The notes under the pieces: generated by a model
Told to the model about the DNA's origin: nothing
Seen by the model: the letters and a program-made list of their open reading frames with translations, nothing else
Database searches by the model: none
From: a virus
Taxonomy: Duplodnaviria > Heunggongvirae > Uroviricota > Caudoviricetes
Length of the DNA stretch: 4,153 nt
IMG/VR virus record: IMGVR_UViG_2703718873_000011
Location: 1-4,153 of that record
Reading direction: 5' to 3' (one strand)
In this document: positions 1 through 4,153 of the stretch, one piece after another
Numbering within the stretch: the first letter of the stretch is position 1
How the letters are laid out: each line of letters opens with the position of its first letter
Translations under genes and position numbers: made by a program

Positions 1-1
1 C

Positions 2-277
2 CTGTTCATTGACGAAATGGCGCATCCGTTACAGCCGGTTCGTCTGTCCGGTGATGAACTTCACGGAGAAGATCCATATTACGTCCTGTACGTCACGCCG
101 CGTCAGTGGAATGACTGGTACACCTCGACGTCCGGTAAGGACTGGAACCAGATGATGGTTCGGGCCGTGAACCGTGCAAAAGGTTTTAATCATCCGCTGT
201 TCAAAGGTGAATGTGCGATGTGGCGCAATATCCTGGTTCGTAAGTATGCGGGTATTATAGCGCGGCGATTTTTTTGA
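2..277 (+). CDS. hypothetical protein, C-terminal fragment (5' end outside window)
   Basis: The frame is open from position 2 (codons L-F-I-D-E precede the ATG at 17 with no in-frame stop) to TGA at 275-277. Codon usage looks E. coli-like (CGT/CTG/CCG-rich). It converges on mom and is followed by a stem-loop at 313-347. No family recognised from sequence alone. Confidence 0.45.
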   Translation: MFIDEMAHPLQPVRLSGDELHGEDPYYVLYVTPRQWNDWYTSTSGKDWNQMMVRAVNRAKGFNHPLFKGECAMWRNILVRKYAGIIARRFF

Positions 278-338
278 TACCGATTTGCATTTCATTTGAT
301 ACCGCTGAAAAACGCCGATACGCAACTTATTTGATACT
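273..338. repeat. Four GATAC-core direct repeats in the intergenic region (TTTGATACC at 273-281 and 295-303, CCGATAC at 314-320, TTTGATAC at 330-337)
   Basis: Seen directly in sequence; spacings between GATAC cores are 22, 18 and 17 bp. The first copy overlaps the stop codon of the left-edge CDS. Function unknown (possible protein-binding sites). Confidence 0.3.
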
Positions 339-347
339 AAATCGGCG
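313..347. terminator. Putative bidirectional terminator-like stem-loop between convergent genes
   Basis: CGCCGAT (313-319) is the exact reverse complement of ATCGGCG (341-347), giving a 7-bp stem. It is flanked by A5 (308-312) upstream and CTTTTCTTTT (348-357) downstream, so a U-tract follows the stem on either strand. The 21-nt loop is longer than in canonical intrinsic terminators, hence low confidence. Confidence 0.3.
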
Positions 348-383
348 CTTTTCTTTTGAGTTTTAGAATGAGTTTTTAAGCGC

Positions 384-1121
384 TCATTCACTCTCTTTCA
401 AACCAGTTTTAACTGTTTGTGGTTTTGGGTAAGGCTGGACTTTGAATAGCTTTGTGTTGAGGCGTTTTCTGGCCCTCTTGTTCAGAAACCGGATGTAACG
501 AAACTGTCGGAACTTATGCACACTGGCTCTGTCGATATTAGCCCTCAGATGTTCACCTCGTTGTCCGCCTCGTTTAATGGCACTCCTGCAAATCTCGTGA
601 TACCACTCGCCATCAAGTTCATAGAATGTTGATTCATGGCTGCCTACATAATCAAAATTGCTTGCCTGATACACGACACCAAGACAGCCACAACGCTCAT
701 CTGCAAACGACTGAACCCACTGTACCTGCGGATAAAGCTGCCTGATTAGCTTGAGCGCGTAACTGATTGCCCTTGATTCGGAGTTTCTCGGCATACAGTC
801 ATGCATCCATAGCCGGTTAAGCTCCATATATTCTCGGTTCTGCGTACCCGTTACGACGCGTGCACCACTGTTTGGGTTAAGGGCGTAACCCCATTGCATT
901 ACGCCAACAAGTTCCCGTTCTGAAAATATACCCAGATGAAGGTAGGAATTATTTACGAAACGGTGGCTGTAATGTTTATTGACGATAACCAGTCTGGCCA
1001 GCCAGCAACTTATTGTCTCAACCCGCAACTCACGGGAGCCATAACCAACGATATTGTCGTTATAGCGAATAAGTTCAGGCGTGCTGATGATACGGGATGT
1101 GACTTGCTTTCTGTTCCCCAC
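384..1121 (-). CDS. mom: Mom-like DNA modification protein (phage Mu Mom family, adenine-modifying, GNAT-like)
   Basis: 245-aa ORF immediately downstream of, and overlapping by 47 nt, a Com-like zinc-finger gene, which is the com-mom operon architecture of phage Mu. Size is close to Mu Mom (about 231 aa). GTG start at 1121-1119 preceded by AAGGAAA 8 nt upstream. The family call rests mainly on context and size; I cannot verify residue-level identity to Mom without a search. Confidence 0.6.
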
Positions 1122-1275
1122 GACAGGATTTCCTTGTGTATGTGGGGTGCTCTGTGGCGCTCGGAGATGTGATTTGATTGAGGGTTTTACAGCGCGGACA
1201 TTTTACTTCCAGATAACTGAAACTGGCCCGTGCCAGTAGCTTATTGCAGTGTCGGCACCGTATGTTTCGATACAT
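1075..1275 (-). CDS. com: Com-like zinc-finger translational activator of mom
   Basis: 66-aa product [30 protein letters not shown]... with C-x2-C at residues 7/10 and C-x2-C at 26/29, matching the phage Mu Com pattern (IRCxxCNKLL ... CPRCK) as I recall it. ATG at 1275-1273 preceded by AGGAGG with 10-nt spacing. TGA stop at 1077-1075 lies inside mom. The TTG at 1320 that opens the track ORF is probably not the real start. Confidence 0.7.
1116..1147 (-). promoter_or_regulatory. Stem-loop sequestering the mom GTG start codon and RBS (candidate translation-inhibitory structure)
   Basis: On the minus-strand mRNA, CCCCAC (from 1147-1142) pairs with GUGGGG (1121-1116), where GUG is the mom start codon. 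The 20-nt loop carries the AAGGAAA Shine-Dalgarno and can form an inner stem (ACAAGG/CCUGU). Complementarity verified by eye; stability not computed. Confidence 0.4.
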
Positions 1276-1320
1276 GGCCGCATAACCTCCTGCTTTGTTG
1301 TTGATGCCTTTCTCATGCAA

Positions 1321-1341
1321 TCGATCGACAAAAACGATCGA
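1321..1341. promoter_or_regulatory. Paired palindromic Dam sites (TCGATCGA ... CGATCGAT) upstream of com
   Basis: GATC at 1323-1326 and 1336-1339, each within a CGATCG palindrome, separated by ACAAAAA; 48-64 bp upstream of the com ATG. Read as analogous to the Dam/OxyR-controlled GATC sites upstream of Mu Pmom, but this is inference. Confidence 0.3.
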
Positions 1342-1440
1342 TTCGATTTGTTTAATTGATACAACAAATAGATTTAAAAGTCATCAACAATGATTCAGGG
1401 CGGTGATTATTTACTTAAAGAAACGAAGAGTTAGGTGGTG

Positions 1441-1462
1441 AAAACGATCATAAAATGATCAT
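1441..1462. promoter_or_regulatory. Second pair of GATC sites in a near-symmetric AT-rich element (AAAACGATCATAAAATGATCATTTT)
   Basis: GATC at 1445-1448 and 1456-1459 within a GATCAT direct repeat flanked by A4/T4; a further GATC at 1492-1495. All in the com / zinc-ribbon intergenic region. Confidence 0.25.
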
Positions 1463-1504
1463 TTTATTGACTTTTTATACAGTGAAGGTAGGATCGCGCG
1501 TATA

Positions 1505-1573
1505 TGTAGTATGTTTCAAATCAACAGGATACTACATAAAAGGGAAACCCAGCATAGCTGGAACTATGCTGGG
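1505..1573 (-). terminator. Tandem perfect hairpins; on the minus strand the second is followed by a U-rich tract (terminator or insulator candidate, alternatively a structured sRNA or operator)
   Basis: Hairpin A: TGTAGTAT (1505-1512) / ATACTACA (1529-1536), 8-bp stem with 16-nt loop. Hairpin B: CCCAGCATAG (1548-1557) / CTATGCTGGG (1564-1573), perfect 10-bp stem with 6-nt loop. On the minus strand hairpin B is followed by UUUCCCUUUUAUG (complement of 1535-1547). Confidence 0.35.
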
Positions 1574-1681
1574 TCAATCTGTAAAAACTTGCATCAATGC
1601 TTTACTTCGAGCTCGTGGCGTATCCTATGATATTCCCCGGTCTCCTGTAAAGCAGAGATGCATAAAAAGGAGATCTTTATC

Positions 1682-1852
1682 ATGGATAAAGAGCCTGTTT
1701 GCCCTGCCTGTAAGACTCCCTTACAGCTCATCTATCGCCGTTCTCGATCTCAAAATGGCAAGACATACAAACCAAAAAATGCTTCCTGTTTCAGGATGCT
1801 GATATGTCCGGCCTGTTCTCCCCGGAGGGAAAATACACAAAACGTGCATTAA
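1682..1852 (+). CDS. Small zinc-ribbon protein (56 aa), putative DNA/RNA-binding regulator
   Basis: ATG at 1682 preceded by AAGGAG (1667-1672) with 9-nt spacing. Product MDKEPVCPACKTPLQLIYRRSRSQNGKTYKPKNASCFRMLICPACSP... has C-x2-C at 7/10 and C-x2-C at 42/45, plus Cys36. Stop TAA at 1850-1852. Transcribed divergently from com. The track ORF at 1658 starts 8 codons earlier with no RBS. Confidence 0.5.
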   Translation: MDKEPVCPACKTPLQLIYRRSRSQNGKTYKPKNASCFRMLICPACSPRRENTQNVH

Positions 1853-1861
1853 CAAATTCAC

Positions 1862-1881
1862 CCGGCAGGGAAACCTGCCGG
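1862..1881. terminator. Putative bidirectional terminator hairpin between convergent genes
   Basis: CCGGCAGG (1862-1869) + GAAA loop + CCTGCCGG (1874-1881), a perfect 8-bp GC-rich stem with tetraloop. It lies 10 nt after the zinc-ribbon stop on plus and 10 nt after the 81-aa ORF stop on minus. Downstream tracts are moderately U-rich on both strands (UCGGUAUUGUU / GUGAAUUUGUU). Confidence 0.45.
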
Positions 1882-1890
1882 TCGGTATTG

Positions 1891-2136
1891 TTACATCATA
1901 GTACCGTCAGTTCCGGGTTGAACCGGCTCTGGTTGCTCTACGGGTTGAGGCTCATTTTCCGTGCTGTTTTCAGCCGGAGAACGACCAACCATTCGGGCCA
2001 GCACTTCATCAACATATGCGTCGATTTGTGCCTCAAAATCCTTGCGAACCTGCGCCTTCAGCACGCGGTTCACTTCTTCAGAATAAAGTGCCTGTTTGAC
2101 AAGCTCTTCAGTAACCGTGCCTTTAATCTCTGGCAT
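1891..2136 (-). CDS. hypothetical small acidic protein (81 aa)
   Basis: ATG at 2136-2134 preceded by AAGGAG with 7-nt spacing; TAA stop at 1893-1891. The N-terminal 50 aa look helical and amphipathic; the C-terminal 30 aa are Pro/Glu/Gln-rich (PQPVEQPEPVQP) and likely disordered. No family recognised. Confidence 0.6.
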   Translation of the reverse strand: MPEIKGTVTEELVKQALYSEEVNRVLKAQVRKDFEAQIDAYVDEVLARMVGRSPAENSTENEPQPVEQPEPVQPGTDGTMM

Positions 2137-2171
2137 GAATATTCTCCTTTCCTTTTCTGGTTCACAAAAAA

Positions 2172-2351
2172 TTAAATCTGACCGGAGTCTTTCGGCTGCG
2201 GCATTACAGCACCGCTTTTTATCTTTTCCTCGGCAGCTGCATCAATTTTATTTCGAAAATAATTGCGAATAATTTTATAACCACCGCTGACAAGCAACAG
2301 ACAACAAACCACCGTGCAGAAATACAGCAGGCAGACGTTTATATATGTCAT
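2172..2351 (-). CDS. Small single-pass membrane peptide (59 aa), not in the supplied ORF track
   Basis: My own translation of the minus strand: ATG at 2351-2349, TAA at 2174-2172, product MTYINVCLLYFCTVVCCLLLVSGGYKIIRNYFRNKIDAAAEEKIKSGAVMPQPKDSGQI. One Cys-rich hydrophobic segment of about 22 residues is followed by a basic then acidic tail (positive-inside topology). GAGG lies 5 nt upstream of the ATG. It fills the otherwise empty 272-bp gap between the esterase gene and the 81-aa ORF. Confidence 0.4.
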   Translation of the reverse strand: MTYINVCLLYFCTVVCCLLLVSGGYKIIRNYFRNKIDAAAEEKIKSGAVMPQPKDSGQI

Positions 2352-2408
2352 ATAAGCCTCACTCTTATTAACTGATGTTACAGCCGGATAAATTCCCGGC
2401 CGTCACGA

Positions 2409-4153
2409 TTATGCCGCAGGGGTATTAACCTCAAGGACAACGCTCTCAAAAGACACGCCATAAGTTGCCCCTTTGGTGACATCTGTCAGTGTCAGCGTAT
2501 CTTTGGCAGGGGAAAGTGCATCTTTCACCATCTGGAATGCCTGGCCCGGAGTGCCATCCAGCACAGGCGTTACCTGGGCACTTCCCGCCGTAAACTTCAG
2601 GACAAGTGTATGCCACTGGTTATTGTAGGCTCCAAATGATCCCAGTTTCGTATTCCCCCCTGTTTTATGGTGCATCAGATTTAACTGGCCGCCTGTTGTC
2701 TGGAGATAATACGCCATCAGGAACGGTGTGCCTGTACCACTCATGGTTACACCTTCCGGGACCGTATCGGTGTGGAGGTAAATACCCAGAGCAAACTGGC
2801 CTTCTTTTACTTCACCTGACAGACGGAATTTACAGGTCAACTGACCACCATGCTTCAGAAGTTCACCGGCTGCATCAGTTCCATGGGTAAGCGTCCAGGT
2901 TTTTCCGCTTTGTTTGGATACGGTCAACGCTTTACCTTCGTCCGTCAGCTGGATTGTACCATCTGTAATTTTCCAGCCCTGAGCCGGGGCTTCTCCTGCT
3001 GATGCTTTAAGTGAAAGCAGCGTACGGAGTGACGGGGATGTCGGATGGGGGGACTCACTGCCTCCTGGCTGACTACCTGTCGGCGCTTCCGGTTTCCCAC
3101 CCGGCGCGGGCTGAGGCAGGGCTTCACCATCAGGGGCCACACCGGCAATAAATGCAGAGGTCAGACCTGCATATTTAAGAATTGCTGATGCAAAACGATC
3201 TGAGACCAGAAAACGGCGCGCCCAGGAGCTAAAATGGGTTGCCCTGGATGCTGTTGTCCAGTTGCCATCTCCCCGTGATTCCGCACCATAATACCCGGCA
3301 GAAGCGATATCCGGGTCGTGCTCCGGCAGGTTGGTCGCGGTTTTATTACCGAACTCATCGTGCATCAGTGGAACAAAGTGAATGTTCTCGGAAGCCCGGT
3401 TTTTATATCCGCTATAAATGGTTTCATATGCCGCCGGGTTCTTCTCTTTCCAGTCATAGGTTGTGTCACCACATAACCACGGCACACTGTCTGATGAACC
3501 ACCAATACACTGACCGGAGAAAGCACCAAGATCCGCACGGAATTTTTTCACCATCGCAGTAAACTGGGCACCATGCTGGGCCGGGGTCGCTTTAAGGTCT
3601 CCTTCCCCCTGAATCCATACGACAGATAACAGCACATTCTTTGGATTCGCCTCAAGTGCCGCTTTAGTTCGACTGACAAGATCCTGATACAGTGGGGTAT
3701 CCACTCCCCAGCGTAGTGACGCCTCGGCTGCACCACTTGCCGGATCGAATGAGCCAACTGCGCCGGTTGTAAAAGCAGAGCCGCCACGGGCACAGGGAAC
3801 CAGTAAAATCCCGGCATCAGCAGGAATCACCGGTAATACTTTTTTCGCAATATGAAGTCCCTGCCCCACACAACCATACTGCCCTTTTTTCAGGTCTGCT
3901 TTTGGATGGTTCAGCAGACTCATATTCTGAACATCATGAAGGCAGTGATCTGCTGGAATGATTTCATTGTATTTGCAGGGAATACCTCCGGGGGTTTGTG
4001 TATTCCTGCGTGCCAGCTGCATAATACGTGGATCAGGACGATCATAAGAATCCGGAAGGGGCAACCCTTCACCATAAGATGAAGCATTGGACTGGCCGGC
4101 TATAACAATCACGTAATACCAGGAAGGGGAGCTGGAAGCAGTTTCATTTCCTG
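2409..4153 (-). CDS. SGNH/SASA-family carbohydrate O-acetylesterase, prophage NanS-p-like (partial; N-terminus outside window), with C-terminal beta-rich putative carbohydrate-binding domain
   Basis: The frame stays open upstream of the GTG at 4112 to the window edge (…GNETASSSPSWYYVIVIAGQSNA…). The GQSN motif after a hydrophobic beta-strand is the block-I signature of SASA/DUF303 sialate O-acetylesterases. A Pro/Ser/Gly-rich linker (PQPAPGGKPEAPTGSQPGGSESPHPTSPS) precedes a C-terminal domain of about 200 aa. At least 581 aa are visible, consistent with prophage NanS-p proteins of roughly 645 aa that carry an extra N-terminal domain (from memory). TAA stop at 2411-2409. Confidence 0.8.
   Translation of the reverse strand, partial: GNETASSSPSWYYVIVIAGQSNASSYGEGLPLPDSYDRPDPRIMQLARRNTQTPGGIPCKYNEIIPADHCLHDVQNMSLLNHPKADLKKGQYGCVGQGLHIAKKVLPVIPADAGILLVPCARGGSAFTTGAVGSFDPASGAAEASLRWGVDTPLYQDLVSRTKAALEANPKNVLLSVVWIQGEGDLKATPAQHGAQFTAMVKKFRADLGAFSGQCIGGSSDSVPWLCGDTTYDWKEKNPAAYETIYSGYKNRASENIHFVPLMHDEFGNKTATNLPEHDPDIASAGYYGAESRGDGNWTTASRATHFSSWARRFLVSDRFASAILKYAGLTSAFIAGVAPDGEALPQPAPGGKPEAPTGSQPGGSESPHPTSPSLRTLLSLKASAGEAPAQGWKITDGTIQLTDEGKALTVSKQSGKTWTLTHGTDAAGELLKHGGQLTCKFRLSGEVKEGQFALGIYLHTDTVPEGVTMSGTGTPFLMAYYLQTTGGQLNLMHHKTGGNTKLGSFGAYNNQWHTLVLKFTAGSAQVTPVLDGTPGQAFQMVKDALSPAKDTLTLTDVTKGATYGVSFESVVLEVNTPAA

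Follow-up and report, generated by a model that had tools for sequence, protein, structure and literature searches.

The com-mom pair found in the window (the whole 4,153-nt stretch of DNA analysed, positions 1 to 4,153 of the IMG/VR virus record IMGVR_UViG_2703718873_000011) is an ordinary, already known feature. Window positions 256-4153 very probably represent the right end (3.9 kb) of an Sp18-type Mu-like prophage that transposed into a 933W-type head gene, with com-mom as a late operon native to the prophage and located where it is canonically found in Mu (Table 1). The first-pass annotation was right about the identity of the two genes and wrong about their context and novelty: it had placed them outside a recognisable Mu context, and they are only 128 nt away from the end of a Mu-like prophage, in the place that they have in Mu.

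Table 1. Position, strand and basis of the features of the window.
Feature	Position	Strand	Basis or remark
933W-type Stx-phage major head gene, fragment	1..255	+	Enters at the left window edge and is broken at 255; insertion target, outside the operon
Right terminus (attR-type end) of the Sp18-like Mu-like prophage	256..356	.	Three direct TTTGATAC repeats
mom, adenine-modifying enzyme (N6-methylcarbamoyl = acetamido), 245 aa, GTG start	384..1121	-	Pfam and comparison with Mu
com, C4 zinc-finger translational activator of mom, 66 aa, ATG at 1275	1075..1275	-	Pfam and comparison with Mu
Predicted hairpin at the mom translation start, CCCCAC pairing with GUGGGG	1116..1147	-	Minimum-free-energy and centroid folds
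Inverted repeat with two GATC sites, AATCGATCG-N7-CGATCGATT	1319..1343	.	Corresponds to two of the three Dam sites that precede Mu Pmom
Hairpin resembling an intrinsic terminator (stem of 13 bp, then a T-rich tail)	1546..1575	-	Terminator scan, strong
DUF826 gene	1891..2136	-	Pfam E = 3.1e-15; annotated at this place in four prophage copies
DUF1378 gene	2172..2351	-	Pfam E = 9.2e-24
SASA/DUF6645 carbohydrate esterase	2409..4153	-	5' end outside the window, about 92 codons missing

Matches of both genes to the Mom and Com families were far above chance. The Mom protein matched Pfam PF25680 over the full profile (E = 8.5e-77, 257.8 bits with a cut-off of 27.1, profile positions 1-202 of 202) and the PHROGs family 'Mom-like DNA modification protein' (E = 1.2e-83), and Com, which contains the motif KCPRCK, matched Pfam Zn_ribbon_Com PF10122 (E = 2e-12, 46.8 bits, cut-off 22.9) and the PHROGs family 'gpCom control of modification' (E = 5e-13). 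When the proteins were compared by BLASTP with those of phage Mu, as had been suggested in the first-pass annotation, the similarity was clear, with 79% identity over 231 aa (E = 2e-140) for Mom and 47% identity (E = 7e-15) for Com. According to the ORF list the pair spans exactly 384-1275 and overlaps by 47 nt (1075-1121), which together with the Pfam and PHROGs matches confirmed the earlier description of a Com-type C4 gene overlapping the 5' end of a longer ORF in the Mu layout. At an alignment offset of +2, identical counterparts were found for all six residues at which mutations of Mu Mom compromise activity or the binding of acetyl-CoA or iron (H48, Y49, R101, S114, D139 and Y149; PMC7261163), and Com cysteines 7, 10, 26 and 29 (CxxC...CxxC) align with Cys6, 9, 26 and 29 of Mu Com, which are zinc ligands (PMC3299994). 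Judged by these sequence features, the com-mom pair looks functional, and the earlier proposal of an anti-restriction module is plausible for this genuine com-mom operon. A scan of Mom, Com and the neighbouring esterase against NCBIfam gave no matches, nor did a PDB sequence search with Com. The mom nucleotide sequence is 100% identical to loci annotated in RefSeq as WP_000528256.1, labelled 'protein mom' or 'Mom family adenine methylcarbamoylation protein'. The same accession is still called 'hypothetical protein' in many assemblies, and RefSeq names Com a 'DNA-binding transcriptional regulator', the literature describing it as an RNA-binding translational activator.

The elements required for control of mom by Com were also recognised around the mom start. 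The GUG start codon (1121-1119) is predicted to lie on the 3' arm of the hairpin stem, with a Shine-Dalgarno-like AAGGAAA in the loop, and an equivalent CCCAC...GUGGG hairpin is predicted in Mu. The gene begins with GTG GGG AAC, and Mu mom with GTG GGA AAA; the stretch GA..GCC...GAGCA.CCCAC upstream of the start is conserved with Mu at the nucleotide level. In Mu, this stretch is the place at which Com binds the mRNA. Because RNA-folding z-scores over the whole stretch around the mom start are unremarkable (-0.16 in the window, -0.66 in Mu), the argument for the hairpin rests on conservation of its stem.

The left edge of the window belongs to a different phage. Positions 1-255 are 99.6% identical to the major head gene in the phage records of 933W, VT2-Sakai and more than 100 other Stx phages, and matched Pfam Phage_capsid_3 (E = 2.9e-15, profile positions 200-274 of 376). 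The Stx-phage match ends at 255, where the 933W gene goes on with gccgatcc..., and positions 256-4153 showed, among the matches listed, 99.6-100% identity to the right end of a complete 38.8-kb Sp18-type prophage. As the 933W match stops exactly where the end of a Mu-like prophage starts, it was very probably a whole Mu-like phage, rather than a cassette, that transposed. The head ORF reads through into the prophage end, with a stop at 277. A search of 5426 complete E. coli genomes and of the phage records did not find this exact junction between head gene and prophage. The interrupted Stx prophage is probably unable to make its own capsids, and the practical value of the analysis lies in the correct annotation of the locus as the junction at which a Mu-like phage breaks a Stx-phage head gene.

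At least 80% of the window was held by 42 of the 5426 complete E. coli genomes, and com-mom together with the right end by 226 of them. The window ends at 4153 inside the esterase gene; the remainder of the prophage was read in copies from other genomes. Three copies were inspected in full, each of 38.8 kb: those of FORC_028 (in ybbA), 2012C-4502 (in melA) and 88.0502 (adjoining gabP). Copies occupy unrelated chromosomal sites (ybbA, melA, next to gabP, fbpC), and the insertion site was different in every genome inspected. Their gene order is end-mom-com-DUF826-DUF1378-esterase-gin-tail-head-lysis-Mor-Gam-MuB-MuA-ner-repressor-end, comprising a gin-like serine recombinase with an invertible tail-fibre segment, baseplate, tape measure, sheath and Mu gpT-type head genes, lysis genes, a Mor-family activator, Gam, a MuB-like ATPase, a Mu-type transposase, and ner-like and repressor-like HTH genes. 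In Pfam checks the transposase matched Mu-transpos_C (E = 1.3e-17) and HTH_Tnp_Mu_1, the gin-like gene matched Resolvase and the activator matched Mor; the Mu-type DDE transposase, the MuB-like ATPase and the head, tail and lysis genes are features of the three complete copies and are not visible within the window. The O157:H7 copy has the order gin-esterase-DUF1378-DUF826-com-mom-end, with 99.0% identity over com-mom. A 'tRNA-OTHER' is annotated between the head-morphogenesis and virion-morphogenesis genes (L007, 20990-21069; L002, 40981-41060). That the window is instead the right-end remnant of a Mu-like prophage cut beyond 4153, with com-mom an orphan that would possibly be silent without a Mor/C-type activator, is very unlikely: although the window reaches no farther than 4153, two frameshifts occur in a + strand ORF at 1390-1852 and some relatives carry IS insertions in the region (H125), all three fully examined copies are full length, window 256-4153 is 100% identical to two of them, and the frameshifted ORF is present in those complete prophages too.

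The esterase, DUF1378 and DUF826 genes lie between gin and com in every Mu-like copy inspected, the O157:H7 copy included, and are resident accessory genes of the Mu-like phage and not of the surrounding Stx phage. The esterase matched Pfam SASA (E = 9.9e-14) and DUF6645 (E = 6.2e-26) and phrog_143 (E = 4e-272), and has a full length of 672-685 aa in relatives. The first-pass annotation had described it as typical of lambdoid and Stx-type prophages, which holds for the family, the best phage matches being Stx-phage esterases with 52-62% amino acid identity, but not for the gene itself, which belongs to the Mu-like phage. It had gone on to suggest that mom was a cassette moved into another phage backbone. 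Recombination of com-mom alone into a lambdoid/Stx backbone, beside that phage's own esterase, giving a new counter-defence module, would accord with the Stx-phage head gene at which the window starts and with three gene families that are typical of Stx phages. However, the Stx-phage match stops at 255, and the following 3.9 kb, esterase included, is nearly or fully identical to Mu-like prophage ends at unrelated sites; moreover, the Stx-phage copies to which the esterase is related at the level given above sit, by the coordinates of the phage records, thousands of bases from the head gene. In lambdoid phages, the trio of esterase, DUF1378 and DUF826 is typically found downstream of stx. Only the 42 genomes mentioned above share the window's esterase allele, compared with 226 for com-mom, and the allele of GenBank record LC727895 is about 70% identical at the DNA level. 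The Mu-like phage bears an anti-restriction module and a sialate-esterase-type accessory cassette.

The structure of the prophage end bears on the same question. Mu's own MuA-site sequence is absent downstream of mom, and the DNA-level alignment to Mu covers mom alone, which would also agree with a transferred cassette. This absence explains why no Mu-end-like motifs were seen there in the first-pass annotation, an observation that stands for the Mu sequence itself but not for end motifs in general, as TTTGATAC occurs three times at both prophage ends. At the right end the copies are located at 273-280, 295-302 and 330-337, all within 82 nt of the terminus (3 copies with 0.18 expected; none of 200 shuffles reached 3), and at the opposite end three copies are present in inverted orientation. 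At either end, the first copy is found 18 nt inside the terminus; the copies form a cluster at the right end and are arranged as one plus two at the left end, as in Mu, and just two further copies occur elsewhere in the 38.8-kb prophage. The TTTGATAC repeats are presumed to be transposase-binding sites, the functional equivalent of MuA sites. Among the matches listed, those to E. coli genomes begin at window 240-256, in most cases at 255-256, and where junctions were read the sequence to the left was unrelated. A target duplication of 4 bp was found in four of four independent insertions (TGCT, CTCT, AACG and CGTG), with junctions at L002 ~19997-20010, L003 ~17140-17156, and L007 and L008 ~97-110 and ~38930-38944; the corresponding junction of the window is at 252-262. 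The annotation of LC727895 also marks a 4-bp duplication. A 5-bp duplication, the Mu value, failed in three of the four insertions with every end shift tried, whereas 4 bp fitted all four. The terminal repeats and target duplications mark position 256 as a transposon end, and transfer of a com-mom cassette alone is extremely improbable. For the transposed Mu-like prophage, the duplicated bases in the window should be GTAT (252-255), with the second copy beyond the window, and the left end should read ...CCTGGTTACA and be separated from 256 by some 38.8 kb of the source contig. The right terminus ends ...GCGCTATA-3' (TA, not CA), and the left end begins 5'-TGTAACC. The 4-bp duplication and the TA-3' right terminus would mean a strand-transfer geometry unlike that of Mu.

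Upstream of com, likeness to Mu was found for some of the regulatory elements. The inverted repeat aligns with Mu AATCGATCGGTAATACAGATCGATT; the flanks are identical, and the GATC-to-GATC spacing is 13 nt in both. Its GATC sites lie at 1323 and 1336, and a second GATC pair is situated about 110 nt farther upstream. Two sites of the three-GATC cluster of Mu Pmom are thereby aligned; across the window GATC is not enriched (16 sites, 15.2 expected). No counterpart of the C-binding site of Mu, or of its TAAGAT -10 element and 19-bp spacer, could be aligned upstream of com, the GATC pair lies about 30 nt closer to com than it does in Mu, and no convincing minus-strand sigma-70 promoter was found directly upstream of com, suggesting that transcriptional control may differ in detail from Mu. 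No shared activator motif could be named when the late-gene upstream regions of one complete prophage copy were read by eye. The terminator-like hairpin, the stem of which is retained in a divergent relative, would end the esterase-DUF1378-DUF826 transcript, so that com-mom would form its own transcription unit with its own promoter. A Mor/C-family activator gene is present in the prophage copies (Pfam Mor). It is the single gene of this family annotated there (L003, 6666-7091); Mu has two such activators, Mor and C. The + strand ORF at 1390-1852 (phrog_26524, a PHROG family of unknown function) ends in a CPAC...CPAC zinc-ribbon-like motif and overlaps both the com upstream region and the terminator hairpin. 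It is intact in the O157:H7 copy (154 aa), carries two 1-nt deletions in the window, and is marked as frameshifted by RefSeq in the identical complete prophages. A role for this ORF as a regulator was set aside as doubtful, the frame being shifted in two of the three lineages compared, and the RNA or DNA structure of the hairpin, rather than the ORF, may be the conserved feature.

The Mu paradigm is the best-supported mechanism for the operon (PMC3378877, PMC7261163), and the sequence prerequisites for Com-gated translation and Mom modification are present, transcriptional control being conserved with Mu in part only. By analogy with Mu, a Mor/C-family activator would switch on a weak promoter upstream of com late in lytic growth, and Dam methylation of the upstream GATC sites would lift OxyR repression. 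The zinc-finger protein Com would then bind the mRNA immediately upstream of the hairpin in which the mom GUG is buried, allowing translation, and Mom, a GNAT-fold protein expected to bind acetyl-CoA and iron, would turn a fraction of the adenines into N6-methylcarbamoyl-adenine, which carries the same -CH2CONH2 group as the N6-(1-acetamido)adenine named in the first-pass annotation. Packaged phage DNA modified in this way would resist many restriction systems. We infer the enzymatic activity, the binding of Com to RNA and the exact promoter from Mu.

A sister lineage, represented by LC727895 and 10 complete E. coli genomes (compared with 226 genomes carrying mom), keeps com (97% nucleotide identity to that of the window) and the start-codon hairpin, and these are followed by a C5-cytosine methyltransferase, not mom. 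The methyltransferase has 350 aa, matched PF00145 (E = 2e-42) and has the same GTG GGG AAC start (L001, 6166-7218, minus strand). The replaced mom body corresponds to window ~357-1110, homology breaking just past the third codon and about 100 nt from the terminus. We tentatively raise the possibility that com and the start hairpin form a fixed, Com-gated 'socket' in Sp18-type phages, behind which whole DNA-modification genes are exchanged; in that case, a cytosine methyltransferase would be translated under the control of Com. The exchange is a minor variation on a published theme, and neither the socket idea nor the transposition geometry alters the verdict on com-mom of the window.

The discovery value of the locus is small, given that com-mom of Sp18-type phages is already in RefSeq and the insertion of such phages into Stx phages is already published. 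Sp18 of E. coli O157:H7 Sakai has been described as a Mu-like phage that is intact and packaged (PMC2669165), and PMC3299994 names it as one of the Mu-like phages in which genes for Mom and its regulators are often found at corresponding positions. In STEC clonal complex 119, Mu-like phages similar overall to Sp18 were found in Stx phages and other mobile elements at variable insertion sites (PMC10132054), and the best phage-database match to the window was one record from that set. The prophage of the window is of the same phage type as these Sp18-like phages, and differs in its insertion site, in the 933W-type head gene at 255, which is absent from the collections searched.

Compared with Mu (AF083977, Mu_52 and Mu_53), in which mom regulation has been described (PMC3378877), the gene order and overlap are alike, and the arrangement gin-com-mom-end and the position at the right end are shared, as are the GUG start in a CCCAC/GUGGG hairpin, two GATC sites with matching flanks and spacing, and the six Mom residues. 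The window differs from Mu in that a 3.2-kb esterase-DUF1378-DUF826 cassette and a terminator separate gin from com, the C-box and -10 element of Pmom cannot be aligned, two rather than three GATC sites are aligned, Mom is longer by 2 residues at the N terminus and by 12 at the C terminus, the prophage end has another sequence and another repeat motif (TTTGATAC), and the target duplication is 4 bp instead of 5 bp. In FluMu (hin1523), Pnm1 (nma1821), Hia5 and B3 (ORF48), com is followed by an N6-adenine DNA methyltransferase that replaces mom (PMC3299994); the enzyme of the sister lineage described above is a C5-cytosine methyltransferase, in contrast to the published N6-adenine enzymes of FluMu, Pnm1 and B3. 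FluMu, Pnm1, Hia5 and B3 share with the window a com homologue controlling a DNA-modification gene at the right end, which in the window is a true mom.
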